Origin: Neophaeotheca triangularis
Taxonomy: Eukaryota
Length of the DNA stretch: 64,000 nucleotides
Assembly (NCBI GenBank): GCA_054600435.1
Contig: BAAIJX010000040.1
Location: 124,001 to 188,000, forward strand
Direction of reading: 5' to 3'
Position 1 is the first letter of the stretch; the number at the start of each line of letters is the position of its first letter. Positions 3,216 to 34,468 of the stretch are shown one piece after another. The notes under the pieces were generated by a model. The model had not been told where the DNA came from. It did no database searches and was given only the letters and a program-made list of their open reading frames with translations. The position numbers and the translations under genes are program-made.

Positions 3216-6200
3216 ATGCGTTACGGTATCGCGTTGGCTGCCTTGAGCACCATTGCTCAGGCAAGTCCACTGTACCGTCGCGCTCCATGCGACCCCCAGC
3301 CTCCCGGCGCTCCAGGTGCTCCCGTTCCAAGCCCAAATACGCCTGCGGCCTTCAGGAACAGCGCAGAAATCGAGGAGATTGCCTCGTCTGCTGCGGCGCC
3401 AGAGGGCTACGACGTGGCTTACTCGAACCTGGCTGCCTCCAACAAGTAAGTGTCGAAAGAGCTGGCCACATTCAAGGCCATGAAATTGACACTCTATCAG
3501 TGAACCATCTGGGTATCTCACCTTCCAATCCATCAACGTATACGACCCGTCTATTTGCGCCGCCCGTTGCGATAGCATCGATGGCTGCACATCCTTCAAC
3601 ATCTATTTCCAACGCTCCCCTAGCGTCGAGCCTGGTTACAACGAGTGCCAAAATCCCGAGGCAGTTGTTTACATTCACTGCGGTTTCTGGCAAAACCAAA
3701 TCTCCATTGCAAATGCTGTCAACACGGGCCAATTCCGCGCTGACTTTCAAGTGCTTATTGGTGGTTCCAACGGTTACACTAGAAGAGATGCTCCAACCAC
3801 GACTGAGAGCACAGTTGAGCCTCCTGTCGAGACTACACCACCCGTCGAGCCTCCGGTTGAGACTGAGACCGTCCAGCCGATCACCACCTCGACTGACACT
3901 GTAGTCGAGCCTCCCGTCGAGACTACACCACCGGTCGAGCCTCCGGTCGAGACTGAGACTGTCCAGCCGATCACCACCTCGACTGACACTGTAGTCGAGC
4001 CTCCCGTCGAGACTACACCACCGGTCGAGCCTCCGGTCGAGACTGAGACTGTCCAGCCGATCACCACCTCGACTGACAGCGTAGTCGAGCCTCCGGTCGA
4101 GACTACACCACCGGTCGAGCCTCCGGTCGAGACTGAGACTGTCCAGCCGATCACCACCTCGACTGACACTGTAGTCGAGCCTCCGGTCGAGACCGAGACG
4201 GAAACTCTCCCACCCGTTGAGACTGAGACCGAGACCGTTCCTCTCCCACCTGTTGAGTCCGAGACCGAGACTGTTCTTCCCCCAGTTGAGACTGAGACCG
4301 AGACTGCTCTTCCTCCAGTTGAGACTGAGACTGCTCTTCCCCCAGTTGAGACTGAGACCGAGACCGTTCCTCTCCCACCTGTTGTGACTGAGACTGAGAC
4401 CGCTCTTCCTCCAGTTGAGACTGAGACTGAGACCGCTCTTCCCCCGGTTGAGACCGAGACCGAGACCGTCCCTCTCCCACCTGTTGTGACTGAGACCGAG
4501 ACTCTCCCACCTGTCGCCACTGAGACCGAGACTCTCCCACCTGTCGCCACTGAGACCGAGACTGCTCTTCCTCCAGTTGAGACTGAGACTGAGACCGCTC
4601 TTCCCCCGGTTGAGACCGAGACCGAGACCGTCCCTCTCCCACCTGTTGTGACTGAGACTGAGACTCTCCCACCTGTCGCGACTGAGACTGATACCGTTCT
4701 CCCGACCGGAACAGAGACTCTTGAGCCAACCACGTCTTCCGTTGCTCCTTCGCCCGCCACTTGCGCACCCCAGCCCCCGGGCGCCCCAGGTGCTCCTGTC
4801 CCTACACCAAACACCGCGCAAGGATTCCGGGATAGCGCCGAGCTTGATGCTCTGGCATTGGGCGCTAGCACTCCGGAAGGTTACGAGCTGGTTTACCAAA
4901 ACCTCGAAGCCTCCAACTCGGCTCCCGGCTACATAACCTACCAAGCTGTTGGTGCCTACCAGCCCGGCGAGTGTGCAGCTCGTTGTGACGAGCTTAGCGG
5001 TTGCCAGTCTTTCAACATTTACTTCCAGCGCAACCCGAGCGTTGACCCCAACAGCCCAGCCTGTCTTAGCCCTCCAGCAGTGATCAACATCTTCTGTGCT
5101 TTCTGGACTACCGATATCTCTGCTGTCAATGCCAACAACTTTGGCGAGTTCCGTGGCAGCTTCCAGGTCCTCATCGGCGGATCCAACGGCTACGTAAGGA
5201 TCGCTGGTGCCCCAACCGGGACTGACACCGCGACTGCCGTCCCTCTACCCACTGACACGCTGACCATCTCTACCGACACTGCTCTGCCGACTGAGACTGA
5301 TGTTGAGACCGTTCTCCCGACTGCATCTCTTACGACTACCGAATCGTTGTCTCTGGATCTCCCATTCCCAACTCAGACGGAAGGGCCTTTCCCGACAGAG
5401 ACCCTTACCTTGATTACGGAAACTGCCACCGACACGGAGACCTTCCCCCCGTTCACGGAGACCGGCACTGAGCTGACTCTGCCGACCGCGACTGACACAG
5501 AGACCGTTGTCACTCTCCCGGACACCACTCTAACTCTTCCAGTCACCGAGACCGACACTGACCTGCCGATCGTGACTGATACGGAGACTGTCGTCACTCT
5601 CCCGGACGCTACTTTGACTCTTCCGGTCACCGAGACAGACACTGATTTGCCGATCGTGACTGACACGGAGACTGTCGTCACTCTCCCGGACGCTACTCTG
5701 ACTCTTCCGGTCACCGAGACAGACACTGATTTGCCGATCGTGACTGACACGGAGACTGTCGTCACTCTTCCGGACACTACCCTGACCTTCCCCCCTTTCA
5801 CGGAGACGGACACTGACCTACCGATCGCGACTGACACAGAGACTGTCGTTACCCTCCCTGATACCACTCTGACTCTTCCGGTCACCGAGACAGACACTGA
5901 TTTGCCGATCGTGACTGATACGGAGACTGTCGTCACTCTTCCGGACACTACTCTGACCTTCCCCCCTTTCACGGAGACGGATACTGACCTACCGATCGCG
6001 ACTGACACAGAGACTGTCATTACCCTCCCTGACACCACTCTGACCTTCCCCCCTTTCACGGAGACGGACACTGTCATAACTGTACCAAGCGACAGCGTCA
6101 CGGTCCCTCTCCCCACGGATGTTGACACTGAGACCGTCGTCACTCTTCCGGACACAACGGTGACTCTTCCTTTCACGGAGACTGATACCGCGGCTCCTAC

Positions 6201-9200
6201 TGCCACAGCTACTCCTGATGACGTTGATGCGGTCATCGACATCATCATTGACATTGGAGCTCAGGATTTCTGTAGCACACTATTGTCCCTCGACCTGGGA
6301 ATTGGCCTCACCCGTCGCCATGCAATCTCGAAGCGCCAGATCAACCTTCCAATCGCCGTCCCAGACGCTCTTCTCGGCGTCGACCTCGACGTTCTCACGA
6401 CCGCTTGCCGCGCGGTAGTTGGCCCAGACCCAACTGCCACCACCACTGCACCAGCCCCGACTAGCACACCTGACTTGATCGCCGATGCACTTTTCAGGAT
6501 TCTGAGCTCAGGAAACCAGCCTTTCTGTCGAACACTACTATCGCTTGACGTTGATCTTGGCCTTGGACTCGATCTTCCTATCTTTGGTAACCTCTTGCGC
6601 CGCTTCACGCGTTCAAAGCGTCAAGTTGACCTTGGTGATTTGGTCATTCCTGATGTCCTTGTTGGCATTGATCTCAATGTTCTCGGCGCTGCTTGCAGAC
6701 AAGCTATTGCGCTGCCCACTTCGGTCACTGAGATCCCAGCGCCCACGACCTCGTCTGCAGTGGAGCCCACAACTATCGTTGACCCGACAACTACGATTGA
6801 GTTGCCTGTCACTGAGACCGACACCGAGCTGCCTATCACTGAGACTGACACGGAAGTTGTTGAGCCGACGACCACGATTGAGTTGCCTGTTACTGAGACC
6901 GACACCGAGCTGCCTATCACTGAGACCGACACGGAAGTTGTTGAGCCGACGACCACGATTGAGTTGCCTGTCACTGAGACCGACACCGAGCTGCCTATCA
7001 CTGAGACCGACACGGAAGTCATTGAGCCGACGACCACGATTGAGTTGCCTGTTACTGAGACCGACACCGAGCTGCCTATCACTGAGACCGACACGGAAGT
7101 TATCGAGCCGACAACCACGATTGAGTTACCTGTAACTGAGACCGACACCGAGCTGCCTATCACTGAGACCGACACGGACGTCGTCGAGCCGACGACTACA
7201 ATCGAGCTGCCTGTTACTGAGAGTGAAGTTCCAGTGCCAACGACTACGGTCACGCTGCCTGAAATTGATCTGCCCACTACTACGGCTACCGACGTGCCTA
7301 CGGCCACCGAAATCCCGGATCTTACCACCTCGACCGCGCCGCTTCCGACGGCCACTCCTGAGGAAGATGCTGAAGTTCTTGCTGCCCTCAGTATCATCTT
7401 GAACATCGGAGCGCAAGATTTCTGCATCGCGCTACTCGACCTGAACCTTGGCGTACAGAGCACCGACGCGCTTCGTCGCCGCAGCAGAGTACATGCGCGT
7501 CAAATCGACCTTCCTGGGCTTCCAACAATCCCCACGGCCCTTGTGGGCATCGATCTCGATGTTCTCTCGCGCGCTTGTCGCCTGGCGGGAGATCTCCCAG
7601 CTACCACGACTGGCACCTTCCCAAGTGGCTTGCCAACAGACGTCACCGAGCTACCTGTTCCTACAGAGATCATTCCAACTTTGACCGACCTGTTCCCGTC
7701 GGTTTCTGTCCCAACCGACCTCCCGACCGATGTAGAGGAGCCTACGTTGACCCTTCCCACGGACCTCATCCCTAGCTTGACGGACTTGTTCCCGACTCTC
7801 GTTCCCACCGATGATGAGCCGACTCTCATTCCTACGGACTTCACTGAGATCCCGGTACCTACGGACATTATCCCTACCTTGACTGACCTGTTCCCGTCGG
7901 TTTCTGTCCCAACTGATCTTCCGACCGATATCGAGGAGCCTACCTTGACTCTTCCCACGGACCTCATTCCTAGCTTGACTGACCTGTTCCCGACTCTCGT
8001 TCCCACCGATGATGAGCCGACTCTCATTCCTACGGACTTCACTGAGATCCCAGTACCTACGGACATTATCCCTACCTTGACTGACCTGTTCCCGTCGGTT
8101 TCTGTCCCAACTGATCTTCCGACCGATATCGAGGAGCCTACTTTGGTTGTCCCTACTGACATTGTCCCATCTCTGACTGATCTGTTCCCTACCCTTGTCC
8201 CTACCGACGTTACGGAGATCCCAGTACCCACGGATATTATCTCTTCTCTAACAGACCTGTTCCCTACGATCTCTGTCCCGACCGACCTTCCAACCGACAT
8301 CGAGGAACCTACTTTGACTGTTCCTACCGACATCATTCCGTCTCTGACTGATCTTTTCCCTACCCTTGTCCCCACCGACGTTACGGAGATCCCAGTACCC
8401 ACGGATATTATCTCTTCTCTAACAGACCTGTTCCCCACGATCTCTGTCCCGACCGACCTTCCAACAGACATCGAGGAGCCGACTTTGACTGTTCCTACCG
8501 ACATCATTCCGTCTTTGACTGATTTGCTCCCTACCCTCATCCCTATCGACGTCACAGAGATTCCAGTACCCACGGACATCATTTCCTCGTTGACAGACCT
8601 GTTCCCAACCATCTCTGTCCCGACCGACCTTCCAACAGACATTGAGGAGCCGACTTTGACCGTTCCTACAGACATCATCCCCTCATTGACCGACCTGTTG
8701 CCAACGCTCATTCCAACAGATGTCCCTCTCCCTACTATCTCGACCCCGCCGATTGCGGCTGATATTCTTATTACGGATCAGATCTTCTCGGCTCTGTCTG
8801 CCATTCGGGGCTCCGGGTCGCAGGATTTCTGCACTGACCTGCTCGGCCTTGATCTTGGTGTCGACGCTGGCTTTTCAGCTGGTACTTTGCAACGACGCGA
8901 CATGGTATATGCCCGTCAGCTTGGCATTCCCGGTGGCTTCCCAACTATCCCGTCGGCTCTTGCAGGAATCAACATTCAACTCCTTGTTGCGGCTTGCAGG
9001 CAAGAGGTCACGGCTCCAGCGACCACCACGGGTACATTTGTCTTGGTCACCGCCCTCCCTACAGGTCTTCCGCTCCCGTCTGATCTTACGGAGATTCCCA
9101 TTCCCACAGAAATCATTCCTTCTTTGACGGAGCTGATTCCTACATTGACGGACCTAATCCCGACCGATCTCCCTACTGGTGAATTCCCCACTTTGACCGT

Positions 9201-12200
9201 ACCAACGGACATTGTGCCGTCGATTAGCGACATCATCTCTGATCTTCCTACCGACGTTCCCCTTCCAACGGACTTCACTGAGCTCCCGATCCCAACGGAC
9301 CTTATTCCTTCTCTCACATCCCTCTTCCCTACTTTGACCGAAGTAATCCCCACAGATCTTCCAACGGATGAGATCCCTACACTGCCCATTCCTACGGACA
9401 TTGTGCCCTCGATAACGGATCTCATCCCCACCGATCTTCCGACAGATCTGACCGAGCTTCCTATTCCCACAGAGATCATTCCATCTCTGACTGAAATTAT
9501 CCCTACCCTTACCGACGTTATCCCAACCGACCTTCCCACCGACGTCCTTCCCACCTTGACTATCCCCACCGACCTCGTACCCTCAATCACCGAGCTCTTC
9601 CCTACGGATCTCCCAACCGATCTCCCGCTTCCGACAGATCTCACAGAGCTTCCAGTTCCTACGGACCTCATTCCGTCGCTTACTGAGCTCTTCCCGACCC
9701 TGACGGACATTGTTCCTACGGATCTGCCTACTGATGTCGAGGTTCCGACTCTTACTCTGCCTACGGAAATCATTCCTTCCCTGACGGAGGCGTTACCAAC
9801 TTTGACAGACCTCCTACCTACGGATCTGCCGACTGACCTCCCCTTGCCGACTGATTTCACTGAGCTGCCTATCCCCACAGAGATCATTCCTTCTATCACT
9901 GAGCTCTTCCCTACCCTAACAGACATTGTTCCTACGGACCTACCTACTGATATTGAGGTTCCTACTTTGACTCTACCTACCGGCATCATTCCGTCTCTGA
10001 CGGAGGCCCTTCCGGAACTGACCGATCTCGTCCCAACTGATCTTCCAGTCCCATCTCTCACAGAGGTACCTATTCCCACAGAGATCATTCCCTCCTTGAC
10101 AGAGATTCTGCCTACCCTCACCGACATCATTCCAACCGATGGGCTTCCCACAGGGATTGAGGTTCCTACTCTGACCCTGCCTACTGACATCATCCCTACC
10201 CTGACGGATCTTTTCCCTACCATCGAGCTCCCAACCGATCTCCCGCTGCCAACTGACCTCCCGTTGCCGACTGATATCACTGAGCTTCCTATTCCCACCG
10301 AGCTTATCCCCAGCTTGACCGAAGCAATTCCAGACCTCACGGATATCATTCCTACAGACCTCCCAACCGGCATTGAAGTTCCTACCCTTACGGTACCAAC
10401 GGACCTCATCCCGTCAATCACCGAGGTGCTGCCGGAGCTGCCTCTCCCGACCGAAGTCACTGAGCTTCCTATTCCCACAGAGCTTATCCCCAGCTTGACC
10501 GAAGCAATTCCAGACCTCACGGATATCTTTCCTACGGACCTCCCAACCGGCATTGAAGTCCCAACCTTGACAATCCCAACGGATCTTGTACCTAGCTTGA
10601 CCGAACTCCTTCCTACAGACGTTATTCCCACTGACCTGCCCGATGTCACTGGCATTCCAATCCCGACTGACTTCATTCCTACCCTCACGGAAATTTTGCC
10701 AACTTTGACAGACATCATTCCCACTGATCTTCCTACTGGCATCGAGATCCCGACCATCACTGTTCCAACAGAGCTTGTCCCATCTCTGACGGAACTTATT
10801 CCCACCATCTTGCCGCCTGACAACACGGAGATCGTCATTCCCACGGACATTCTCCCTACCTTGTCCGACCTATTGCCTGAGATCACTCTGCCTACCGCTC
10901 TTCCTACTGACGTCGACCTTCCAACCATTACGGTGCCGACCGAGATTGTTCCATCTATCACCGAGCTTTTCCCCACCATTGAACTGCCACTCCCAAGTGA
11001 TCTCACCGAGATTGTCGTCCCGACTGAGCTCATCCCTGATATCACGGACATTCTCCCAACTGGGATCATCCCCACAGATCTCCCTACGGACGTTGAACTG
11101 CCTACCTTGACTGTTCCTACTGGCCTTATTCCCAGCATCACGGAAGCTCTCCCTGATCTTCCAATTGATACCGACGTCACGCAAATCATTGTTCCCACGG
11201 AGCTGTTCCCATCCTTGACTGGTGTTCTTCCGACCGAGGTGTTCCCGACCGACCTTCCCACCGACATTGACCTTCCAACACTCGAAATTCCCACAGAGAT
11301 CCTTCCTAGCTTGACCGACTTCCTCCCGAGCGACATTTTTACGGAGATCGTTGTACCTACCGATGTGATCCCTGATATCACGGATGTCCTACCGTCAGAC
11401 ATTGTCATCCCTACCGATGTTCCGTTGCCTACGATAACGGTACCCACCAACATCATCCCTGATTTGACCGAGGCGCTTCCCACGCTTGTTCCGACGGAAC
11501 TCACGGAAATTATTGTACCCACCGAGCTCATCCCAGACATTACGGAGATTCTTCCAACTGACATTGTCATTCCTACCGACGTTGAGCTTCCAACTTTGAC
11601 GGTTCCCACCGACATCATCCCAAGCTTGACGGAGGTGCTTCCTACCGGCATCATTCCTACTGATCTCACCGAGATTGTGGACATTCCCACGTTGACGATC
11701 CCCACGGCCGTTCCTACCATCACGACTCCTCCCATCGCCACTGGCGTCCCGGTTGGAGACCAGATTACCGCTGCCCTTGGAGTTATTGTTGACATCAATG
11801 CGCAGCCATTCTGTCGCAACTTGCTTGGCTTCGCTGATGGAATCATAAGTTCTGTCATTCCAGTTACTACAACTCCCACCGTTACTCTTGGTGTGCCTGG
11901 CATCATCAGCACCGTCCTCAGCGTTCCTCGACCACCAATCTCACCAACCATCCCCAATACAGCGAACTTTGGCAATGGTGTCCTTCCTTCGGCAGGATTC
12001 GGATTGAGCCTGGACGCCAATCTCCCCGGACTCGGGCTCAATATTGACGTCGGCCTTGGTTTACCCGTCCTTGGCAGACGCAGCAGGCTCTCAGCGCGCC
12101 AACTTGGAGGTAACCTTCCAACGCCACCTGCGCAACTTGCTGGCTTCAATATCGACATCATCGCCGCCGCCTGCCAACAAGCCGTTTCGCCACCAAGTAC

Positions 12201-12681
12201 TACTACGGTCACGTCAACTATAACTGCTGCGCCTACCAGCGTAACGGTCACTACAACTACCATAACCCAAACCAGCACGCAAACTCAAGTACCCACCTGC
12301 ACTGCTGGCGGTGCATCTCTCGTACCTTCTGGCCAGCGCTGCGGATGTAATTACGCTACTGGATGCGGTGCCTTGACCAACGCCATCTGCAGAGTACCAG
12401 CTGGTGTCTTCCCAAGCCTTGCATCCTGCGTGCAATTCTGCGACCATTTCAACACTTGTGTTGGTGTCAATTACAACCGTCAATCTGGGTTGTGCACAGT
12501 TTGCGACAACAACCTCTTGGGACTTGGCCTGCCTGTTCCAAGTTTGAGCCTTACTGGCTTGAACTTCAACAGTGCCTTTGGAGTCAACACTACCGCCGCG
12601 GCCAGAACCAGGTGTGCTCTCAAGATTCCACTTCTCGGCGGTGGCGCGCTCAACGCGCTGTGCGCTGGTGCCCTCCTGTAA
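3216..12681 (+). CDS. Giant secreted mucin-like/Kex2-processed polyprotein (~3136 aa); exons 3216-3445, 3501-12681
   Basis: Signal peptide-like N-terminus MRYGIALAALSTIAQA followed by SPLYRR. A 55-nt intron (GTAAGT at 3446, TTGAC branch, CAG at 3500) joins ORF 3216 in frame to the 2976-aa ORF and restores a Cys domain homologous to a second copy at 4762-5193. Thr/Pro/Glu/Asp repeat arrays; Cys-rich apple-like C-terminus. Confidence 0.9.
3814..4200 (+). repeat. Coding tandem repeat, 90-bp unit, ~4 copies (VEPPVETTPPVEPPVETETVQPITTSTDTV)
   Basis: Near-identical DNA units, e.g. gtagtcgagcctcc recurring at 3901, 3991, 4081, 4171. Confidence 0.9.
4201..4700 (+). repeat. Coding minisatellite of short ETET(A/V)LPPV units
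   Basis: Repeated gagactgagacc/ctcccacctgt motifs; roughly 27-42-bp variable units. Confidence 0.85.
5491..6190 (+). repeat. Coding tandem repeat, 84-87-bp unit (TDTETVVTLPDTTLTLPVTETDTDLPIV)
   Basis: About 7 copies visible in the translation and the DNA. Confidence 0.85.
6784..7222 (+). repeat. Coding tandem repeat, 81-bp unit, ~5 copies (PTTTIELPVTETDTELPITETDTEVVE)
   Basis: gaagttgttgagccgacgacc at 6853 and 6934 (81-bp period), continuing downstream. Confidence 0.9.
7639..11720 (+). repeat. Coding PTD(L/I)/PSLT(D/E) repeat arrays: ~180-198-bp higher-order units (7639-8720), then degenerate units (9060-11720)
   Basis: The translation shows 60-66-aa higher-order repeats followed by diverged copies. 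Confidence 0.8.
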
Positions 12682-15199
12682 ACGGCTTCAAGATGATGAT
12701 TAGGCATTACTTGCTGCGATTGACGCTGCCAGCAGCTCTCGCAAAGTTCAATGCCTATTGACGCAAGAGGCGCGGCATTCGATGTCCGCGCTACGAAGTT
12801 TTTCACGGCTGAACAGAAGAAAATAAGATTGATTATTTGTTTTCGAGCTTGGCTTTATCCAGCCGACGATGTTGCTTTGGCTTCCTTTCTCTCATTTCGT
12901 ATCGTATATATATTTAGTTTCGTACAAAGATTATTTTCGTTCTCATACTGATTTTCCCTATCAATTTGAGCTTCTCTTCATTCATCATCTCCACACTTTA
13001 CCTTGTCTCGAGACCTCGAAGCTTGGACTTGGTAGACTGCGGTTCCATCTTCAAAATTGTTCGGTGAAGTTGTCACTTGAGCATTGGATGGCACCGTTCA
13101 TACATCTTGCTGCTACGTAATCTAGGGCGTCTACTGAGTGAGCTGGTCGATCCGCTTGGCCCCGTCGAGTGCGCGAGCAAAAGGAGATGTTTGAAGTAGC
13201 AGGTTTGTAGTGCGCGGGCGAGCAAAAGATGGACTTCGCTCGATTGATTGCTCGGTTGCTCGGTCGGTAGGTAGGTGGGAAGGTAGGTGGGTGAGTAACT
13301 GTCGACGGAATTGATATACGGTAGGCTCAGCGTTGTAATGCTGCCTTCCAATTGACTTGCCACCTGCTCGCTTCTCCCGGCACTTCTAAATGAGGCAGAA
13401 AGCTTCCGCACACTCATTCCAGTCTCTTCAATTCTTGATCAACAGATCTAATGTCTGTGAGTTAAAGTCATCGCAGATCGGTCACTACGGCCGTTGTACT
13501 TGATGAATAGTCGTAACGAGCAAGCAGTGAGCTATTGAGTGAGCGTACCGAAGCAGAGACTACCAAACGCGAAGACACGAGCAGACAAGCGTCTGAGCGA
13601 CCAGCCTACTTATGCCGAGACGGGCGAACGGGCTCTTACCCTTTCTGCTCAAGCTCGCTCGCTCAGCGACCAACATATCAACTCGTGCAAGTGATCACGA
13701 AGCGGTCCACGTGAGTTGAGATCTGACAACCCATCCTGGCGGTACCTACGGGCGAAGCTCAAGTTCTTGTCCACATCCGCTAGCGCTCCCCGTTGACGGC
13801 CGGGGAGACTGCTCCGGCTCTAGAGTTGGGATGCATTTTCGGCTGTCCCGACGGTCATCTGCCGGCCTCGTCAGAGTTCAGGGTGCTTTATGCGATCCTT
13901 CCGAAAGCCATATTCCGGCCTTGGCACCGATGAAATGGTTGCAGCCGGTCGCCTGATGCCGCTCGGCTAGGTTTCTGTGTCTTTCTCCGCGCTCCCTTTG
14001 CCCTCGCTTGAGTCCGCCGATACCTAGACACGGTTAGGTGTTTTTTATACGATGTACCTTACCGTCACGAGTGGACGACTTACTCTGGTAGCTGTCCAGC
14101 AATCCGGCCCTGCGCGCCACGACAGAGGTGAAGAAAGTAAAGTGAGGTGAGGTGAATGATGGAGAGTGAGCGAGGTTAGGTCAAAGTAAGGTAAGGTACA
14201 GTAAAGTCGTCAAAGTCTATTCGAACCTCACCAAGGGCTTCGGCCGGCTACTTTGAGGAGGCTCGGCCCGAGAAGCCGACTTGGCAAAAGACGTCTTGTC
14301 CTGCAGACTACTAAGAGGTAGTGCAGTAGCACTTCAAGAAACAGGGTCTAGAATACCAGATCTGCAATGACAATATCCTGTGCCACACAAGGCCATGTAA
14401 CCATTAAACGTTGTGAATTGGTCGACGCATTCCCGAATCCTGAGAACTTTTAGCCAGCCGAATGGTAGCGGCAGGCCAACGGCATGCTTGGGGCTTGGAT
14501 AGTAGTCAGCCGTGCCCTGCGACTGCGGTACGAGGAACGTTCAAGAAAGAACAGAGTTAAAGGTGCTCGGGAATCAATGACTTGCTAGTGCCGCTATCAC
14601 CTCGACACGACTCTAAAGACGCAGAGCGCGGGCCTCGTCCATATCTTAAACGACGGGCTAAGCGTCTCCAAAGGTGTAGCGAAGCGTCACCCGAAGTCTT
14701 GCGAGCTCAGCCAGAAGCCGAAGAATGCCTTGGGCGCAGGTCCGCTCTCGCATGCTGCCGAGTAAACAACGCCACTTCCAGAACCCGGCACTGCCGCTGG
14801 CTGAAGTCATCCTATTTGTACCCTTTCCTGGCCCTCGGAATCACACCGCCGTTTCTCGACGATTGATAGCTCGGCGATTGATAGCTCCACGGGATCCAAA
14901 TGTCCCTCCTACCCGTTTCAACGTCTCAACTGCATTATCACCGACATGGAGTGCATGACCTGAATCGAAGCCTGTTTTGACCGCATGCCAACATCGATAG
15001 CGCGGCGATTACCGCAAGTATCCTCGACGGGATTCCATTGTCGTTTGTTTCCGCTTCTCTTTCACTACCACAAGTCATGGCGTTGTCTGCAGCCTGAACG
15101 CTGACGCTCTCTCTATCTTGGGGTCATTGGCACTGGGATTCGACAAGAGCATTCGGCTGTGTGGAAATTATTTCGCGAAGCTGTTGCTAGCAGCGCTCG

Positions 15200-18800: not shown

Positions 18801-21022
18801 CGGCGACGCCAGCAGTAACTTAGTGCTAGTACCTCCTAGCAATAGTAGCATTTTATACTGCTACTGTGACTCTGTGAGTAGTGCTATGTGACCCCCGACT
18901 TCACAGAAGGTAGCCACATCGATAACAGAGAGAGATCGTCGAAAAACTCTGATCACCCATGATGCAATAAACCCGGCTACTACCCTTGGCTACCTAGCCT
19001 TATGCCCACGAGAGACGCCTTTCTATCTGTCCTGCCACGCCTTTCAAAACCCCCCGTAAAAGCTAGACATAACTAGGGCGGTAGGAAAGTGAAAGACGAA
19101 AACTTTGCCCCGTCACACCTAAAAGTTGTGATTGCCGCATTCATCGATGTTGCAAAAGAAAAAACGCCATCGATTCCCCCGACACCACTGAGCATCATAT
19201 TCAGGCCTACCAGATACTTACCTAACATGCTGGCCCATCCATGCCAATAATCTCTCGGGAACCGGTCGATGCCCTCGGTGCAGCGGAGATGATCCTTCTG
19301 GTAAAACAAGCTACCGACAAGATGATGAAAACAATAATGTCATCTCGATCTCAAGACCTCTCACAACAGGACATCACGATCGCGGTTGTAGCGTCGTCGA
19401 AAAAGTACCCACCTGCTAGATAGGTGATTGGATTGGGAGCATCACCAATATGCACAGCAAGCGCATCATGGAACAGCAGCGAGAAGCAGCCGGGTCATGC
19501 GCAGACTTTTCAAATCGCAAGGGCCTTGTATTTTGATTCCATCTCTCTCGTACTACCTGCCGTTGCTTTTGACTTTCTTTAGATACGTCGACAACAGGAA
19601 GAGTGGGCTTCATACAGGCTACAGTTCTGTTCCATCTGTTAACTGACTCTTACTCGGCGTTGGACCTCCTAGCCTGAGCAGTTTTTAATCTTGATGCCAC
19701 ACACTCCCAAGGTCCACCAGCGAGCACTCAACGACACAGTAAGAATAACTGTACCGCTTCCAGCTGGGGGTCAGATCGCGTTGGCTCATCTATGCGGGAG
19801 ACAATTCCGACTTGAACCGGAATCCAACGCAAAATCGTTACCTGGCGGCATGATGTTACGTTCAGAGCTTCGACCCCTGCTATCACACTTGACAAAGTCT
19901 TTCAGTTCAATTACTAGCTTCCTTCAGTCGCAGTACCGACCAACTAGTACTTACATTCTTCGAGGCAAAAAGCAAGTTAGGCTAAATACGCGCTTACGCT
20001 TGTGACGTGGCTTCAACTTCTCACCGGGGGCTTGGCCTCGTCTCGTCAGTGGGCACCAATGCAGTGAATGCAGCAGCAGAGGAGGACTAAAAGCACCAGG
20101 GGGAATGGCTTGATGGTATCCCTTCACAGCTGGAGCCTGGTGAGTCATGACTATGGGTAGCATGATTGAATCCCTTCGCGAGATGGTGAGAGCATTGCTG
20201 CCCGAGAAAGCATTCAATTGCTTGTCCGGCCACACCGTGCATTGCTGCACCGTAGCTTGCCCCGAGTACAGCGCCAGCAGTCGTCGATGCCGATCGCGCC
20301 CCATAAAGGCGACGAGAGGGGGTCGATCGGACTCCAAGTCAGGCAAGATCTGACCGCAGTATGGCACCCAACAGAAATCTCTGCAAGTCTCATTCGTGAG
20401 TCGGGTTCCCGCTGCACAGACTTGACAGGACGACGCCAAAGTTTCGGATTGCGAAATGAATCACACAGGTAGTTTAGCGCGACGAGACGTCGACAAGATA
20501 ACGCGCCCCGTCCTTGAGGGAGGGCGTCGTGTCGGATACCGAAGTGAGTGCTTCGTGCTTGTAGTCTGGAGAGCTACTTTCTCGGCTCTTTGTTGTTTCA
20601 CGCGTCTCGTCGAGTTGGCATTTTGCGAAACTCTTCGTTACTACTGTACTACTGCAGGCGGCGAAGTACCCTTCTTTATCGTACAGTCTCAAGCTGTGCG
20701 CTGCTTTGGCAGACGCTTTTGCTTTACAGCTCTTCGTAGAGTCAACACAGTTTTTTGTTCGTCTGACTCTAAGGCCAGTAGATTTGTCCTGGCTCAAGAG
20801 GGCCAGCTACTGCCTTGGATGTGCGTGTTGCTGAAAGAAGGAACGAGCATGCAACTACCTTCGAAGCAAATATCTCAGGGCAAGGTAAGTACTACAACGG
20901 CAAGTTCACTTTATCGCTCGCCAGCACTCCAGCTGTTGTTCAAACAACTCGTCCTCCCTATGTAATCGTCGAGCTTTTTTGAGACCAATTGAGGTATACC
21001 TTATGGGGGCATTATAGCAACC

Positions 21023-23965
21023 ATGAATACGATCAAACGCAAACCCGTACGCAAGCCTTCAATGCAAGACCTCTCTGCGGACCTCGCTATACACTCCTCG
21101 GACGGTACTCCCAGCGAACACAGTTCCATCTACGATGCTTCAACCGGGGGAATTCGTCTGTCAGAGATGATGACATCCTCGGAGACCGACGATATGAGCG
21201 TGCGACGAGACGACACGGCGGCTCAGGAAGTACGATTTGTGAACAAGCCAAATGGCACTCCATTGTTCACCATCGTCGAGCAAAAGAGCTTGAGCACCCT
21301 GCGCACTATACCCTCGAACTGGACTTTCCAACGCCGCATAGTCACTTTCGACCCTGCAAGCTCATCCAGCCCTTCATACAAGAGTAATGTCGAGTCACAA
21401 GGGACTGAGAGGAGAAGGTGTCAATCACTGGACGAGACAACCACACGCAAGCTTGATGCTGTTCAGGAGTTCTCCCAATGCGTATCATCCGACAACAGCA
21501 CCGCCCAAGCAACCGCCAGCCACTTAGCCGAGCGCTCCAAGCCCGCAACACCACCTTTTGCGCCCCCTGTAAGAGTCACAACCCCCGAGGGCCTGCCACG
21601 CTGGCCTGGAGAAGTTAATTACAGCCCCCCTCGGAGAGTGAGCACTCGAGCAGCACTTCTTAAGTACATTCGCCAACGTGGCAGGAACGGGACCAGTTTG
21701 CGAGACGTTTTTCATACAAATACTAGGAATGCGCAAGCACGTCCGACGGCGACGGGGAGGCGGTATTGGAGGCCTCCCGTCAGCGGCCACGGGACTCTGA
21801 GGCATGATGGCCTTGACAATCACCCCTTTGCTGCTGCAAATCACGAAGAGCATCCGTCAGAGCACACCCAACCGCCGCACGCGAGATCGAGCCAGGACAA
21901 ACTCTCTCCGCCAAACGAGACCAGTGTCGACGGTCCCCGGCAGGCTGCAACAAGCCCCGCCCAACGCGCCCTGGCTTTTACGCAAGAGAACGCAGTAACA
22001 GTTCCTGCCGCGCGCGTGCAAGCCGCAAGTGCCGCTCGCTCAGTCTCGATGCCGAAACGCAAAGCAAGCCCACCGCTGAATACCACCGCGAGTACCAGGC
22101 CACCAAGCGCCATCCCGAGCACCGTACGGACCGTAGATTTGCTTGAGCAATTCCCTGGACCACCCGAAGAGTCGATCGGGGACGTCGAGCAGGAGCCCAA
22201 CGCGAGAGGGTCAAAGAAGGTGGTCAAGCTTTCGCCGTTCCCGAAGCAAGCATTGTTCGCACCTAAAGCTCGACCTGGGGCAGCGGTTGCGGGCTTGCTT
22301 GTTGGTCAGAATGTTGGCACCGAGACGCAGCAGTGTTTGCAGGATCTTTTGCGGACTCGCGAGGTACTTGGAGATGGCGAGAACAATCACCCGGTTTCCC
22401 TCGATGTTGCGGCTGAGGGACAGGAGGTTTCTGCGGTTGGGCAGACGGTATGCCACGATGCCAGCTCGTGTGCTGCTCGCAGGGAGGGTGCGCAGCGTGG
22501 CTTGACCGCAGAGAGATCAGCCCTCCTCAGTCCGGCGACGGAAAGTGGTACAAGCACCAGCAGGTATTTCAGCGCCGCCAGCGAGATGGAACCACAGAGT
22601 ATCGCCGGTGCAACAGAAACAGTTCCCCCGCCCCGGCAAAATGACGAAGAGCGCGGAAGGTCCAAACATCGCGTCACGCGCAAAAACACTATCGTCACCA
22701 CCACCAACCGGCCCATCACCAACGTCGTCCGCAGCCTCAAACCCCCGAGCCACGAACCCTCTCCCAGCGTCCAAACCTCCCAACACACCACACCCCTATC
22801 CCACCACCTGCACTCCTCAAACCCCTCCCCGCGCTCCCCCTCCCTAACCCCCATAACTCTCACAAGTCACGCACGCTTTTGCCGCCATCGCCTCCCCTCC
22901 CCAACCGTCCCGCTCTTCACGACACCCCCGTCGCAACAACCCTCCAACCTCGACGGCACGACCGACTGCAGCACCCACGGCCGCACGCCCACGGCCCGTC
23001 GCGCCAGCACCCGCACGGCCACTACCCAAGACCCTCCCACGAGCCCGGATTGCTGGAAGTGCCGCAGCATCCTGTGTCTTGAGAATGTGATGCGACGGTT
23101 AGGTCGCAGTTGTCTGTGCGGGTACAGGGCGGAAGTTGTGTCGTCGCGCGAGTCGCGGGGCCGGGGTCGCGACGCTGCGCCCGCTGCCAACACCAACGTC
23201 GACGTCGACGCCGCTGCCTTGCCTCCTGTCGCCGCGGGCTCTCCCCTTTCAAATGCTTCGCCTGTTGTTGTGAATTCGCGCATCAGGGGCGTGGTGTTGG
23301 ATGATGGCGAGGCGGAGGCTATTGAGCTGGAGCTCGCGAGGCGCACGGCGCCGGGGGCTAAGGGGAGGGGGCATTGGACTTTTCGGGACAGTGTGGCTGT
23401 GCCGACGGGGGAGGTTGTGAGGGCGCTGAAGGCGAGGGAGAAGGAGAGGGAGGAGAGGAGTCGGGAGAGGGAGAGGGAGGGGAAGAGGGGGGAAGGTGAG
23501 CGGGAGAGGGAGAGGGCAGAGAGTGCGTTGAGGCATGTTGGGGGGATCGGGGTGCTCGATCGGCCGGTGGGGATGAATGGGGTTGAGTGGGGGAGGAATA
23601 GGCTTGGGACAGGACACGGGGCTGTTGAGGCTGGGGGTGAGGGAGAGGTTGTATCATCCGGCATGCGGCCTGCGGAATGGGGGAGGGGGTCTACGCAGAT
23701 GGGTTTCGTGACGGGTCCCGAGGGCGGTTTGGTTCCTGTCAAGGTTCGGCACAGGAGTGAGGAGCACGAGGAGGTTTCGCCTTTGACCAGGCAGGCTACC
23801 GGGGTGAGGAGTGGCGGGCAGCGGGCCGAGAGTGTTTTGGAGATGGGTCCTGCACTTGCACTGCCTAAGCCGGTGGCGGTGCGTGGAGATGCCGCGATCA
23901 GTGCGCCGCCTTCACCTGTGCCTGCGGGATTGCACGATGGGTTTCCGAGGCGGCAAAGTACGTGA
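21023..23965 (+). CDS. Hypothetical, largely disordered protein (980 aa)
   Basis: Uninterrupted 2.9-kb ORF with a good start context (caaccATG). Ser/Pro/Thr/Arg-rich; no domain recognised. Confidence 0.65.
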   Translation: MNTIKRKPVRKPSMQDLSADLAIHSSDGTPSEHSSIYDASTGGIRLSEMMTSSETDDMSVRRDDTAAQEVRFVNKPNGTPLFTIVEQKSLSTLRTIPSNWTFQRRIVTFDPASSSSPSYKSNVESQGTERRRCQSLDETTTRKLDAVQEFSQCVSSDNSTAQATASHLAERSKPATPPFAPPVRVTTPEGLPRWPGEVNYSPPRRVSTRAALLKYIRQRGRNGTSLRDVFHTNTRNAQARPTATGRRYWRPPVSGHGTLRHDGLDNHPFAAANHEEHPSEHTQPPHARSSQDKLSPPNETSVDGPRQAATSPAQRALAFTQENAVTVPAARVQAASAARSVSMPKRKASPPLNTTASTRPPSAIPSTVRTVDLLEQFPGPPEESIGDVEQEPNARGSKKVVKLSPFPKQALFAPKARPGAAVAGLLVGQNVGTETQQCLQDLLRTREVLGDGENNHPVSLDVAAEGQEVSAVGQTVCHDASSCAARREGAQRGLTAERSALLSPATESGTSTSRYFSAASEMEPQSIAGATETVPPPRQNDEERGRSKHRVTRKNTIVTTTNRPITNVVRSLKPPSHEPSPSVQTSQHTTPLSHHLHSSNPSPRSPSLTPITLTSHARFCRHRLPSPTVPLFTTPPSQQPSNLDGTTDCSTHGRTPTARRASTRTATTQDPPTSPDCWKCRSILCLENVMRRLGRSCLCGYRAEVVSSRESRGRGRDAAPAANTNVDVDAAALPPVAAGSPLSNASPVVVNSRIRGVVLDDGEAEAIELELARRTAPGAKGRGHWTFRDSVAVPTGEVVRALKAREKEREERSREREREGKRGEGERERERAESALRHVGGIGVLDRPVGMNGVEWGRNRLGTGHGAVEAGGEGEVVSSGMRPAEWGRGSTQMGFVTGPEGGLVPVKVRHRSEEHEEVSPLTRQATGVRSGGQRAESVLEMGPALALPKPVAVRGDAAISAPPSPVPAGLHDGFPRRQST

Positions 23966-24259
23966 GAGGGAGCGCTTCGGGGAAGCTGACTTTGCTGGGA
24001 TTTGGTAGCGGACGTGGTCGAAAATGTCCTATTCTTACACACGTTCTTCGACTCGGGGGGTATGGACCTATGAACAGCTCTTTCTGTACAACCTTTATAA
24101 ATGATGATTCCCTCGTGACGCCTGCAAATGCGACTGCTGCACAGCTTCGCTTCCTGCGAGCTGTAAATTCTTCCAAACGCCAATCCTACTCCTTTGCCAG
24201 CTTTTGTACACTGACCCGTGCTATGAGTACAAATCCCCGATACTGCGGTGTCGCACCTT

Positions 24260-24591
24260 TTATTTCCGCTTGTGTGGCCCAACGATTTGCGGGTAGAGTC
24301 TGGACAAGTGATGGTTGATGGAGCTCTTTTTCGTTTGCATTGGTTTCTGTCGGGGTTTTTCGCATCAGCATGTCGTCCAACAGCCACCCTTCGGTCACTC
24401 TCTGGATCTCTTCGTCTTCCAGGACGAACGAATACATACCCTTGCGTCCATACAGGCTCTCAGTTGTTGTTCCAACGCCGCACAGCCCTGTGTGCTATAC
24501 CCTTGAGATGCCCAGCAACCTGTAGGTTGGAATGTATCAGCGCTTCTATTGTTGCCTCGCCCCAATCTCCCGTATCATACGGCCCCTGCTG

Positions 24592-24624
<33 letters not shown>

Positions 24625-24818
24625 TCTCGTCGCGATCTCTCATCAGGGCCCAACGTACCCAACACCGACGACATGACACCAATACACGGGTTCGCATCTG
24701 CTCGGTCTGGCCTTCGAATCTTGAGCTTCGAGAGAGGCGGCAGTTGAGGTCCGGATTGCTGCCCAGACTGCGCAGCAGCGCGGGCAACGGTAGAAGGGGT
24801 GTTCTTGCCGGCGACCAT
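24260..24818 (-). CDS. MRP10: Mitochondrial small-subunit ribosomal protein mS37/Mrp10 (twin CX9C type), ~108 aa; exons 24818-24659, 24519-24440, 24346-24260
   Basis: Spliced product LPPLSKLKIRRPDRADANPCIGVMSSVLGCWASQGYSTQGCAALEQQLRACMDARKPMQTKKSSINHHLSRLYPQIVGPHKRK with Cx9C..Cx9C. Introns GTACGT..CAG and GTATGT..CAG. Not visible as a single ORF in the track. Confidence 0.9.
24592..24624. repeat. (CT/GA)n microsatellite inside MRP10 intron 1
   Basis: tctctctctctctctctctctctttctctctct. Confidence 0.9.
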
Positions 24819-25080
24819 GTTTGGTTGTAGTCGTATTTGCTGTTATCGTCAGGCGTTCATTGACAGAGTATTCTAATGTTGCACTGCCGTCTCGAACATG
24901 GGATGAAGCCAAGATCTATAAACAAGTCTTGGCATATGCAAGTCGCTCGGGAGCAGCCGCGCGATTGTTGACGCCCACTTCCCCAGTGTTTACTCCTCCC
25001 AGCCTAGGTACCATCTCAAGCACGCGACAAACCCATATATATTACAACACCGTCGCCGTCGCGCATATCATCTCCACATC

Positions 25081-28000
25081 ATGGCGGACGACTCATCTTT
25101 ACCGAGCGACGACAGCAAGATGCAGAAACCCACGGAAACCTCACAAGAAAGCACGACCGACGCTTTTGCCGCGCACTGGCAACCCACCGACACCCACTCC
25201 CTCCTCCCTGGCAACTTGCCCTTGACACGTCCCGCTCGCGCATACGAGCGCAAACCCTCTTCGCCCTTTACGCGCCGCCAAGTACGCGTGGGCAAAGTCT
25301 GGAAACGCGCTGCGGCGCTGCCGGCAACGCGTCGTGAAAGTGTCGCGAGTCCCGGTGCCGGAGGGGGCTTGGCTGGCAAGTCTATGCGCCGGTTGAAGGG
25401 GCAGGAGGAGTCGCGGCAGAGTCCGCTGAAGCCTGTTAAGAAGATTTGTTTGCCTGCTGGTAGTGGTGGGGAGCGTGGTGTTAGGCCGCAGGTTGCGCTT
25501 TGGGAGGGCAGGGGGAGTGGTGGGGAGGGGAGGAAGATTGTTACAAGGAGTGGAAGGAGGGCTGCTGTTGCGGGGGATGGGGAGGAGGGGCTGGTGGAGT
25601 TGGCTGAGGAGGGGACGGAGGGGGGTCTGGTTGATGAGATTGAGGGAGCGCATGGTGCTGAAGAGGAGGATGCGGAAGGAACCCTGGTCGAAGTTCTGGA
25701 TGAGGATGGGATGCCCATGGAGGGAGGTGGTTTTGCTGGGGATGGCGAAGGCTGGCTGGATGTTGAAGCTGAGGAGTTGGGCGACGACCCAGAAATTGAG
25801 CGCACGCTTGTGCAGCCTGACGATGGTTCTGGCTTTTCTGAAGTTCACGATAGTGTCGTAAGCTCGCAAGGAGAAGCATCTGATAAGCAGAAGGCAGAAG
25901 ATGCAGAGCAAGGTCAAGGATCGACTGCAGTGGATGAAATCGCCACTGAAAACGCGATCACCTCCCCTAACGAGCGAAAGGCGACAGAAGATACAACTCC
26001 CATCCATGCGCAGAACACCGCGCTCGACTCTCCATCTGCACATCTTACACGAGACGACGCGCCTCTACCAGAAGGCTTCGTCTCGCCTGTCAAGAGAGCA
26101 CCAAGAACCAGCCGAAGGACAGTCAAGGAGGCGTTGGCAGCACGGAGGAGGACTCTACCCGTCCAGTTCGCACCGGCTATAGTACCGGAGCAGTTGGCCG
26201 CAGATGCCTCGCACACTGATCTGCCTATGGAGACGATTGATCAGTCCGTTGAGCAGCACGACTCAAGTTCTTTACAAGTTCTGACGCCCACAAAAGATGC
26301 CAGCCAACTTGCAGACAAAGATGGTCAAGGGGATCTCCCTTCTGCTAGAAGTGCTTCAATGACGACTTCACCGGCGTTTCGGCCGCAGACAGGCGAAATG
26401 GTGCAGCCGCTATCCGCCGAAGAGGCTTGGGAAGACGTGTCTGAGGATGAGGAACAGGTGGAGACGACAGAGAATCTTCCAGAGGACGAGCCATCACTTG
26501 AAACGTTGCCCGTCGGCGCGAAAAACTTGTTGAGCGAGGCAGAACACGACAGCACAGAACACATTGACATGTTCCAGGACGGAGACGACCTCTCGCAAAC
26601 GGCAAGCTCGAAGACAATAACAGTAACTCCAACGACGCTCGATACGCCTACCGACGATATGGCTGTGGAAAGTCAGTCTCCCTTCCATGTCCGCAAGTCA
26701 CCCCGGCGCAAGTCTTCCAGCCCGATTAAGTCACAGCATGCTGTGCTCAAAGGCAAAGACGTGCCGCATCTTGTTGCGTTCAGCCCTATCAAGCGTGTGG
26801 AAGTACACCTCTCTACACACGACATTCCTGATCTCGCTTTGCCTGAAGCGCCTACCATGTCAAAAGACACTGCCATTGCGCTCGACGATGCTTCGCCTGA
26901 ATTGGCGAGCCCTGTGCAACGATCATCTTCGGCTCCACCAGAGGAACCGAAGATGTCACCTCACAGGCCCAACAAGCCACGTGTATCCGACGACACTGCG
27001 CTGCTCCAGGCCTTCCTCTCCCGTGCGGCTGCCAACAAGAGTACCAAGCGAGCGACTACCGCTAGGCGCGAATCAGCTTCCAATCGTAGGGACTCTGAGA
27101 CCGTGAAACAAGCGCTTGCGAGCCCGGCTAAACCAGAAGTACTAGGGGATTTGGATCCCAACAGCTCCTCGCCTCGAAAACCAGCTGGACTGGAGGACAT
27201 GCCTAACTCTGAGCCGATAGAAGAAGTGTACAAACCTTTCAGCAGCGGTCAAGACGAAGGTACCAACATCGAGCAAGCGCCCAAAAAACGACGCAGCACC
27301 CGCGACAAGAAGAAGCCAGCGCAGAACCCCATTTCAGACAACTCATCCCACCCCTCGCCACCGAATAGGATCGCTGTCCGAGGCCGCGCGGATCCCATAG
27401 TGCTGAAGAAGACAGAAGCCCACCAGCTAGCTCTTACGACCAAAAACAATACTCGCAAGAACAAAGGCACCTCAGTACTTCCACAGCTACGACTCACCAA
27501 GCTCACAACCGAAGTCCCACCCGAAGCGCAAAACGTTCCTGAAACCAGCGAGCAGCCAGCCACCGGCAAACGAGGCATCAGATGGGACGAGACCCTCACC
27601 TACTTTTTCGAAGCACCCTCGCAACCAGCCCTCCTCGAACTCGGCAACAGTGATAGTGCGCCGCAGCTACAAGCCGAGTCCATTCCCATGGACACCACCG
27701 AAGAGGACCACGAACCCCAACCCCCTCCACCAGCGGAAACCCCCTCCAAACCCAAAGTCCGCCGCCTCAAAGCCCCAAAGGCCACCGCCGCTTCCACCGC
27801 TGCCGGCAAAACCGCAACCGCCCAGCCCACTGCGCCCGCACCTCCCCCACCAACAACAGAAACCCCCTTAACCCGAAAACAGCGCTCCCGCATCGCTACA
27901 CCTGCCGCCAAAGCTTCGACTAACAACATCTCCCCGGAAGCTCCCATTGATGCCAACTCCAACACTCCCGCTCCTTCAACCACGAATTCAACAGCCCCTA

Positions 28001-28446
28001 GCTCTTCTCTCCCGAGAAAGCGCCCCGCCCCTCAGCCTTCCAAACTCCCTTCTCTAGTCCCCAGCAACTCGAGCCTTCTCGGGCAGGGCAAGGGCAGCTT
28101 ACCTGCTCCCAATATTAGCACGAGTGGGAACGGGAACGGGAAGGGGAATGGGAATGGAAACGGAAATGGGGGTCCGTTGGAGGGCTGTGGAGCCGGGTTG
28201 ATCGCTTCACCAGCTAAGAAGCGGAGGACTGCTGCTGGCACTACTGCTGGCACTGGCTCGAGAGCTAAGAGCGGGCTAACGGGTCCGAAATTTGGTGGTG
28301 CTGGTGCTGGTGCTGAGGCTGAGTTTGGAAATGATGGGCTTGGTTCTGGTCCCGCAACGGGGTTAGCGAGTCCAGCCAAGAAGTTCAGAAGCAAGATTGG
28401 GGGCTTTTCCGCTTCCTCCGCGGGTGCGTTGCCGGAGGATGCTGGC

Positions 28447-28477
<31 letters not shown>

Positions 28478-28569
28478 GTGGGGAGGGGAGAGGGACGAGG
28501 TCTGCAGCGCTGTCGAGCTCTGGCGTGGGTGTGGGGTTGAGTTCGCCTGCGAAGCGAAGGAGGAGGTAG
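25081..28569 (+). CDS. Hypothetical disordered, probably nuclear protein (1162 aa) with many CDK consensus sites and an RVxF-like motif
   Basis: Uninterrupted 3.5-kb ORF, head-to-head with MRP10. Conserved-looking islands RVSDDTALLQAFLSRAAANK, LALTTKNNTRKNKG and KRGIRWDE; basic C-terminal NLS-like clusters. Confidence 0.75.
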
Positions 28570-33914: not shown

Positions 33915-34468
33915 TGGTTGGTTGGGTCGGAAGAAGTGGGGGTCGAGTTAAACCGATTGTCTGGGTTAGGTTGGGTTGGGGAGGGTGCAAGAGGGTTTTG
34001 ATCCCTTGCGACTGGTTTTGTAGGTCTTGAGTATGGTGGTCGAGTTTGCAAGGGAGGTAGGAAAGAAGAAGACTGCTTTGGATGGTTGGGAATGGTCGAT
34101 CTGGTTGCTGCGGCCTGGCTTTGCTGGATTATTGAATGGATTGGGTTGGTGATATTCTTTGTAGTGAGAGGATGGGTGATTCAGGGGCCCTTGACTTGCC
34201 TTTGACTCTAGACCGGCGGAAGAATCGAGTTGAGACATGGTTTTGCGTGAGACTTGCCTGCTAATTTTGCGACGGGAACGCTTTGTGACATCCAGCGCAT
34301 GAACAACAGACGAGTAGTAAAGGCCATACGATGGTCTTCTCTTCAGCATTTTTTCGTATATGATACAGTGCTGCTTGCTCTATCATTCGTAGACTCGCTC
34401 CCGGTGCTAGAGGCAAAATCGCTCCTTCACTCCTCCCCTTGATGGTGTCAAACTTCTCTTTCCCCTCC

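Follow-up and report, generated by a model that had tools for sequence, protein, structure and literature searches.

The 64-kb window analyzed here (64,000 nt; contig BAAIJX010000040.1, positions 124,001 to 188,000, of the Neophaeotheca triangularis assembly GCA_054600435.1) carries on its forward strand a two-exon gene with a predicted product of 3136 aa (Table 1). N. triangularis is a dothideomycete of the order Neophaeothecales. The protein has two PAN/Apple-like cysteine domains at its start, a third at its end and tandem repeat arrays in between. Five modules of a common type are placed at the borders between different arrays, and each of them has exactly two cysteines, which lie hundreds of residues from any other cysteine and enclose the cassette L-x-R-R-x4-(K/A)-R-Q.

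The first-pass annotation of this DNA had described five two-cysteine modules, each split by a basic cassette of fixed spacing, and the translated frame bears this out. The pattern RR-x4-[KA]-R-Q, with the spacer sequences given there, has exactly five matches, each inside one cysteine pair, and the motifs Q(D/P)FC-xxLL, P..L.G(V/I/F)(D/N)(L/I) and AC recur in all five copies. The reported insertion of ~70 aa in copy 5 is likewise present, with 119 residues between its cysteines versus 44-55 in the other copies; it sits between the first cysteine and the cassette, which is unaltered. Absent from that annotation was a leucine two residues before RR in 5/5 copies (L-x-R-R). The modules are 37-52% identical to copy 1 when all five are aligned, and 18 columns are invariant, including F28, C29, L32, L33, L41, R43, R44, R50, Q51, P59, L62, G64, A73 and C74. 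The cassette pattern is beyond chance. Seven of the nine dibasic positions in the 3136-aa protein lie inside cassettes (five RR and two KR), and the two outside are YRR/A directly behind the signal peptide and TRR/D beyond the first PAN-like domain. With a profile trained on these same five modules, all six frames of the window yielded these five only (103-133 bits), the next score being 4.5 bits.

Direct searches with the modules failed; relatives were reached through the PAN-like domain. A search with the second of these domains matched P0076 of N. triangularis (71% identity), P0077 (55%), P0079 (49%), P0081 (43%) and P0082 (44%), with E values from 2e-126 to 5e-28. Two of the eight PAN-like matches, Aureobasidium pullulans D6D01_09999 (P0081) and Elsinoe fawcettii D9617_3g019790 (P0082), carry a single FC...AC stretch, which runs from ...SSLQPFCSTLLGY through a Thr-rich run and RR/KR, sometimes with a second KR, to TPxGLTRFPATVLSSACS. 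A search with P0082 returned 277 proteins at E <= 1e-5, and taxa and names of these relatives are taken from the 120 matches listed. Among the matches listed are Dothideomycetes, Leotiomycetes (Botrytis, Coleophoma) and Sordariomycetes (Colletotrichum, Apiospora, Xylariales), with source names such as "Apple domain-containing", "carbohydrate-binding-like" or "glycoside hydrolase"; one relative is named "Sporulation-specific protein 5", a name that pointed to no informative publication among those listed.

Profile-profile alignment by hhalign, five window modules against 34 of the family, gave 95% probability and an E value of 3.9e-8 over 78 columns, so the related FC...KR...SAC motif that had been mentioned for other fungal secreted proteins exists and reflects true homology. 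In a joint alignment of the five with 14 family modules, C29, P59, L62 and C74 are invariant in 19/19 sequences, and the window (K/A)R occupies the same column as the family KR. Pfam scans of the window protein and of its relatives found no model for the module, and the PDB, searched by sequence with P0082 and with the module profile of 19 sequences, yielded no relative.

Members of this unnamed Apple-domain family share with the window protein an N-terminal PAN-like domain, the FC...KR...AC module and basic sites in the same loop, and P0082 has a C-terminal PAN domain too. They are proteins of 420-1040 aa with a Thr-rich loop and one module in 88/90 cases (two in 2/90), whereas the window protein has five modules in 3136 aa with giant repeat arrays between them, and four of its five modules have short, non-Thr loops around the fixed RR-x4-xR-Q cassette. 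The window module appears to be an expanded and compacted version of a single-copy module found in many Pezizomycotina Apple-domain proteins, where it lies between N- and C-terminal domains. Aureobasidium P0144 and P0174 have two modules each, of which one has a short loop and no basic sites and the other a long loop and RKRD. In the Apiospora proteins P0151, P0170, P0172 and P0176 the FC half and three basic sites are kept and the second cysteine is missing; three of the four (not P0176) have a cysteine inside the loop.

Family modules were located with profiles of the N- and C-terminal module halves on 126 relatives, which gave 92 modules in 90 proteins. (K/R)R occurs between the cysteines in 87/92 modules, whereas 1000 rounds of loop shuffling gave 13.7 on average and never more than 28 of 92. 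In 72 of these 87 the last dibasic site lies 18-24 residues before the second cysteine; by hand count, the window (K/A)R lies 23-26 residues before it in modules 1-5, with K-R in only two of the five. Two or more separate sites, 6-76 residues apart, are present in 44/92 modules. Family sites have Lys (70) or Arg (17) at P2, Ala (42), Asp (22), Gln (10) or Ser (8) at P1' and Leu, Val or Ile at P4 in 41/87. Clustering at 50% flank identity yielded 11 clusters, all 11 with the site, and site-bearing taxa include Botrytis, Colletotrichum, Xylariales, Glonium, Hortaea and Aureobasidium. These comparisons indicate that three fungal classes keep a dibasic site set back by a constant distance from the last predicted helix, and that its host is a Cys-Cys loop otherwise free in length and sequence.

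Table 1. Predicted features of the five-module gene, in window coordinates
Feature	Positions	Strand	Details
Exon 1	3216..3445	+	ATG at 3216; 230 nt; ends at GTAAGT donor
Signal-peptide-like segment	3216..3263	+	MRYGIALAALSTIAQA; judged by eye from sequence
Short propeptide	3264..3281	+	SPLYRR, then A; candidate cut site YRR/A; exon 1 then opens first PAN-like region
Intron	3446..3500	+	55 nt, GTAAGT...CAG; sole acceptor leaving the frame open to 12681
Exon 2	3501..12681	+	through stop codon
PAN/Apple-like domain 1	3502..3810	+	5 Cys; PAN_4 15 bits vs cut-off 27
Repeat arrays A	3812..4700	+	periods 90 and 33/162 nt; units VEPPVETT / ETETxLPPV
PAN/Apple-like domain 2	4762..5214	+	PAN_4 17.4 bits, under cut-off; 71% identity to P0076
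Repeat array B	5439..6049	+	period 84/171 nt
Module 1	6187..6438	+	Cys codons 6271, 6406 (frame residues 928/973); LTRR-HAIS-KR-Q, RR...Q 6313-6339
Module 2	6442..6726	+	Cys codons 6526, 6694 (1013/1069); LLRR-FTRS-KR-Q, RR...Q 6598-6624
Repeat array C	6778..7222	+	period 81 nt
Module 3	7339..7608	+	Cys codons 7423, 7576 (1312/1363); LRRR-SRVH-AR-Q, RR...Q 7477-7503
Repeat arrays D	7639..8699	+	periods 198 and 171 nt; units PTDxIPSLTDLFPT
Module 4	8746..9027	+	Cys codons 8830, 8995 (1781/1836); LQRR-DMVY-AR-Q, RR...Q 8893-8919
Diverged repeat region E	~9100..11700	+	approximate limits; PTD/IPSLTE-type units; one array at 9601-10007
Module 5	11728..12204	+	~70-aa loop insertion; Cys codons 11812, 12172 (2775/2895); LGRR-SRLS-AR-Q, RR...Q 12076-12102
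C-terminal PAN-like cysteine-rich domain	12298..12510	+	PAN_1 16 bits, under cut-off
Hydrophobic C-terminal tail	12613..12678	+	...CALKIPLLGGGALNALCAGALL; candidate attachment signal for glycosylphosphatidylinositol (GPI)

The frame 3490-12681 is open for 3063 codons from stop to stop and has a single internal Met, and the start codon was therefore sought upstream. The N terminus of the resulting gene model agrees with the start of P0076, MRYATAFAALSALAQASPIHRRAPCDPQPP, and its exon junction, ...NLAASNNEPSGYLTFQ, agrees with ...NLDASSNEPSGYLTFQ in P0076, in line with the predicted splice. P0076 (MBLNU230_g0998t1, 625 aa, on a 25-kb contig) is a gene model that stops directly after the second PAN-like domain, just short of the module region. 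Probably, this model or its assembly breaks off in the repeats, which may be why public protein sets lack the part with the five modules.

The 3063 residues of the frame include 603 Thr, 450 Pro, 371 Leu, 243 Asp and 226 Glu, with 44 Arg and 3 Lys, and the whole protein has 475 Asp+Glu versus 51 Lys+Arg and one N-x-T sequon. The product is probably a very large secreted, acidic, Thr/Pro-rich surface or matrix glycoprotein, and O-mannosylation is probable. Directly after the signal peptide stands SPLYRR/APCDP in the window protein and SPIHRR/APCDP in N. triangularis, and other family members have KR or RR just ahead of the same C-x-P-Q-P motif. It would seem that Kex2 processes the N terminus in this family as well.

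Contigs from marine and aquatic metatranscriptome libraries cover most of 11500-12821, one of them (X2) identical to the window and another (X3) 95-99% alike; they come from RNA libraries, where presence is no proof of transcription, and stretches left uncovered carry no evidential weight. X2 and X3 both end at 12821, ~140 nt past the stop codon, and X4 continues, which is a weak hint that 12821 is the transcript end. The module-5 cassette is identical in X3 and X4, and the residue three before RR is changed from Val to Thr. The tail, ...RTRCALKIPLLGGGALNALCAGALL, is the most variable part among the related-strain contigs: X4 has 6 nt inserted at 12630, and seven substitutions are listed between 12634 and 12673.

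The three PAN-like domains of the window protein score 13-17 bits, under the Pfam gathering cut-offs of 21.4 (PF00024) and 27 (PF14295), and the orthologue P0076 only just reaches PAN_1, with 21.7 bits. The C-terminal domain aligns Cys-for-Cys with PAN_1 of E. fawcettii P0082 (E 5e-5, a single comparison). Between 3812 and 11700 the stretches that separate cysteine domains or modules are each a different tandem array (periods 90, 33/162, 84/171, 81, 198/171 and ~216 nt). All arrays are acidic and rich in Thr, Pro, Leu and Ile, with Ser, Lys and Arg nearly absent, unlike classical Ser/Thr mucins.

The five-module profile, searched against 1.84 billion representatives, gave 75 matches at E <= 0.001. 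Seventy-two of these have the acyl-carrier motif G(I/V/L)DS(I/L)(K/N/M) and are bacterial proteins of the polyketide or polyunsaturated fatty acid synthase type with 3-10 tandem carrier domains. None of the 75 has the RR-x4-xR-Q cassette, the Cys pair is lacking, and E values down to 1.6e-18 arise from summed repeats, the single-domain re-scan giving ~2-22 bits. These matches were dismissed as compositional. That a five-module profile draws acyl-carrier domains is a trap for automatic annotation. The same profile search found no true relative and missed the real single-module family too. A word-based search with modules 1-2 within full proteins, covering proteins of 1684-5361 aa only, gave no match; the ESM Atlas gave no usable match for modules 1-2, and metagenome contig scans with modules 1-2 and with module 5 plus the C terminus gave no confirmed relative.

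The rest of the window carries ordinary housekeeping genes, with Pfam matches to TFIIH p62, a formin GTPase-binding domain, histidine phosphatase, F-box/WD40, a Cdc24-type RhoGEF and an MFS transporter. No Pfam match to a protease or thiol-oxidoreductase partner was found among the 16 largest frames of the window, nine of which have no Pfam match of any kind. Long frames at 20993-28569 and 32427-37008 encode low-complexity, Ser/Pro/Ala/Arg-rich products and have no Pfam match.

AlphaFold2 models of the module, from 5 or 19 aligned sequences, have helices at 10-23, 26-38/39 and 67-78 with a predicted local distance difference test (pLDDT) score of ~80, and the cassette lies in a loop between helices with pLDDT 51-60. 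In the model, helix 2 carries the first cysteine in its opening turn and helix 3 carries the second four residues before its end, positions at which a closing disulfide of an antiparallel helix pair would lie. Read by eye, C29-L33-L37 and L67-L70-C74 place each cysteine on the hydrophobic stripe of its own helix. Double cuts at the five cassettes would yield chains of 1000, 89, 287, 466, 1055 and 193 aa. In this prediction the middle chains have two cysteines each, from two neighboring modules, and the end chains have 13 together (12 + 1); these counts agree with one FC-AC bridge per module. The first-pass annotation had spoken of six large chains, which would fit five large or medium ones and not the 89-aa connector of modules 1 and 2. 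Foldseek found no match to the module model in the PDB at E <= 0.001. The best Z score of a wide VIA-align search was 5.3, to the N-terminal helical domains of ATP synthase OSCP/delta, which is under the level that the program itself regards as common among helical bundles, and no fold was assigned.

According to the specificity data in PMC8528282, Kex2 requires Arg at P1, prefers Lys or Arg at P2 with some tolerance, and favors Leu or another aliphatic residue at P4. The first cassette site, L-x-R-R in 5/5 modules, is canonical for Kex2, and the second has I/R/V/V/L at P4, K/K/A/A/A at P2 and Arg at P1. Judged by motif, both sites fit the published specificity, and the three A-R copies of the second site would be of the extended "LxxR-like" type. 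Data on Gln at P1' were not found in PMC10135057.

These features suggest the following course of maturation. The Q(D/P)FC and AC cysteines of each module would form one disulfide in the endoplasmic reticulum, and the loop between the bridged cysteines would expose the cut sites L-x-R-R/ and (I/V/L/R)-x-(K/A)-R/Q. The motifs and their conservation in the family point to a Kex2-type proprotein convertase that would cut both sites in the late Golgi; by analogy with established yeast biology, a Kex1-type carboxypeptidase may then trim the ends and the new N-terminal Gln may cyclize. The hexapeptide spacers would be discarded, and a nicked chain of six segments would be held together by five disulfides and the fold, with five small helical clasps at the array borders and PAN/Apple-like binding domains at both ends. 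Cleavage, trimming, pyroglutamate and disulfide are all inferred from motifs. We think it likely that the loop is cut, and the intramodule bridge is likely to form; the combined reading, which is the core of what the first-pass annotation had proposed and in which a single disulfide closes a helical domain, a Kex2-type protease cuts its exposed loop and the chains stay linked, is the best supported and seems to us about evenly poised between holding and failing.

Several points weigh against this reading. Three of the five second sites are Ala-Arg, with a non-canonical P2. No five-module orthologue was found in profile, word-based or metagenome contig searches, and the between-strain evidence on the cassette is limited to module 5 in contigs that are 95-99+% alike and too close to inform. 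The module model is modest, with a mean pLDDT of 66-67 and a predicted TM (pTM) score of 0.51. A dibasic site is missing from five of the 92 family modules, all short-loop, which shows that the fold can do without the cut. An extra cysteine is present in the loop of 10/92 modules, and four Apiospora members lack the second cysteine. The C-half profile includes the KR columns and may be biased to KR-bearing modules; a large bias is disfavored because all 13 proteins in which only one module half was recognized, including three truncated models and the four Apiospora proteins, also have (K/R)R there.

The loop might be cut and the chains might part, with the cysteines paired across modules, with those of other molecules as gel-forming mucins do, or with the wall, giving a polyprotein of six independent glycoproteins or a cross-linked network. 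Conserved dibasic sites and modules at the borders of different arrays, as expected of a polyprotein, agree with this, as do the Apiospora proteins without a second cysteine and the loops with a third. Such a separation appears rather unlikely, since both cysteines are invariant in 19/19 and lie on either side of the cut, each module has just its own two cysteines far from any other, and both fall in predicted helices of one compact model, on hydrophobic stripes. Alternatively, the protein may be uncut and the cassette a conserved basic patch with a structural or binding role, for instance in touching the acidic repeats or polymers of the wall, or a signal for export. In a protein with so few Lys and Arg among its acidic residues such a patch could carry electrostatic weight, and the A-R second sites, not K/R-R, and the family modules without any site would be accommodated. 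We regard an uncut patch as unlikely. What the family keeps is only (K/R)R and its distance to the second cysteine, in a free loop that is predicted to be unstructured and has site spacings of 6-76 residues; P1' is small or acidic and P4 often aliphatic, as in Kex2 sites, and in these proteins the signal peptide is directly followed by a propeptide that ends in KR or RR.

Yapsins cut mucin-like sensors, and the loop could be cut after secretion by another protease for basic residues, e.g., a GPI-anchored, yapsin-type aspartyl protease, in regulated shedding and not in constitutive maturation. The A-R sites are poor for Kex2, and in unbuffered cultures acid proteases cut near the same basic sites of Candida albicans Ywp1 after secretion (PMC6258133). 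L-x-R-R in 5/5 modules and K-R in 70/87 family sites are, against this, the canonical Kex2 pattern, and a surface protease as the main agent seems improbable. [quoted passage not shown] The likeness is that of secreted fungal precursors with several KR/RR sites, here double sites around each spacer, and KEP surveys list motifs from 3 aa up (PMC6339444); the products would be HAIS, FTRS, SRVH, DMVY and SRLS, with or without basic ends. KEPs, however, are defined by three or more motifs that resemble one another and take up at least 15% of the chain (PMC6339444). The window spacers HAISKR, FTRSKR, SRVHAR, DMVYAR and SRLSAR are mutually unlike, have no common pattern and make up 30 of 3136 residues, the pieces between them (89-1055 aa) are unlike too, and sites in relatives are separated by anything from 6 to 76 residues. 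The protein falls outside the KEP definition, and a precursor of small secreted peptides is highly improbable.

The further proposal of a redox-releasable extracellular polymer found no support and is speculation. A wider possibility, which we hold to be doubtful, is that FC...KR...AC is an ancient, previously undescribed domain of the Pezizomycotina and works as a joint that is pre-nicked and stapled by a disulfide, a fungal counterpart of the SEA domain of animal mucins. Kex2 would cut every copy during secretion, a surface mucin or adhesin would be left as a row of segments with single disulfides as their only hold, and the segments could come off stepwise through thiol exchange, reductants or force. 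The five-module protein would then be its extreme form and would permit graded shedding or remodeling of the cell coat.

If the linked-chain maturation outlined above is true, a whole family of uncharacterized secreted Apple-domain proteins from plant pathogens, black yeasts and saprobes (Botrytis, Colletotrichum, Elsinoe, Aureobasidium, Hortaea) would mature to two-chain, disulfide-linked forms, which would alter their tagging, expression, modeling and detection in secretomes. It would also be a domain-level case, in large glycoproteins of the wall or matrix, of Kex2 cutting within a folded loop closed by a disulfide; in fungi such a scheme has so far come mainly from small killer toxins. The five-module protein offers five internal replicates of one site. 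Even if the sites are uncut, a new conserved domain remains, one that has neither a Pfam model nor a solved structure.

Outside fungi, two systems resemble the proposed joint in part. The SEA domains of animal mucins are a small fold in or beside mucin repeats in which a loop is cut and the halves stay together; they are self-cleaving and held without a disulfide. In proinsulin, a small hormone precursor, the connecting peptide is excised at paired basic sites between disulfide-linked chains. Neither has a sequence relation or a demonstrated fold relation to the window module.

Closer systems are found among fungi. The K1 killer preprotoxin of Saccharomyces cerevisiae works like that of K28. 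In the K28 preprotoxin, Pdi1 makes the alpha/beta disulfide, Kex2 and Kex1 cut, and the toxin leaves the cell as a disulfide-bonded heterodimer (PMC5391188). Among fungi it represents the "proinsulin-like" scheme, in which a disulfide spans the stretch that is cut and the chains are secreted while joined. K28 and K1 are small, virus-encoded toxins with one excised gamma segment; the window protein is a 3136-aa mucin-like protein with five clasp modules and a predicted excised piece of 6 residues, and it has no known sequence similarity to them, no toxin sequence having been compared.

Ywp1 of C. albicans is a wall glycoprotein with two multibasic sites a few residues apart (RRR-x8-KR), both cut in a Kex2-dependent manner with probable Kex1 trimming, and the cut-off propeptide stays tightly bound (PMC6258133). 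It differs in having one such site per protein, near the N terminus, with a spacing of 8 compared with 4 in the window; its two propeptide cysteines bond each other, and the processing described in that report is one of strong association, with no disulfide across the cut described (PMC6258133). The first-pass annotation knew of no description of the repeated double-site architecture. For the module this stands, within open-access full text: word searches there found no description of the module or of a Kex2 site in an Apple-domain Cys loop, which is a weak absence. For double sites as such it does not, given RRR-x8-KR in Ywp1 and 44/92 double-sited family modules.

The processing scheme itself is already known from killer toxins and Ywp1. 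What is new beside them is, as read from the alignments, a conserved, unnamed domain family with a dibasic site inside a Cys loop, together with the five-fold multiplication of its module at array borders in a 3136-aa mucin-like protein and a compact cassette in which L-x-R-R and the Gln that follows the second Arg never vary.

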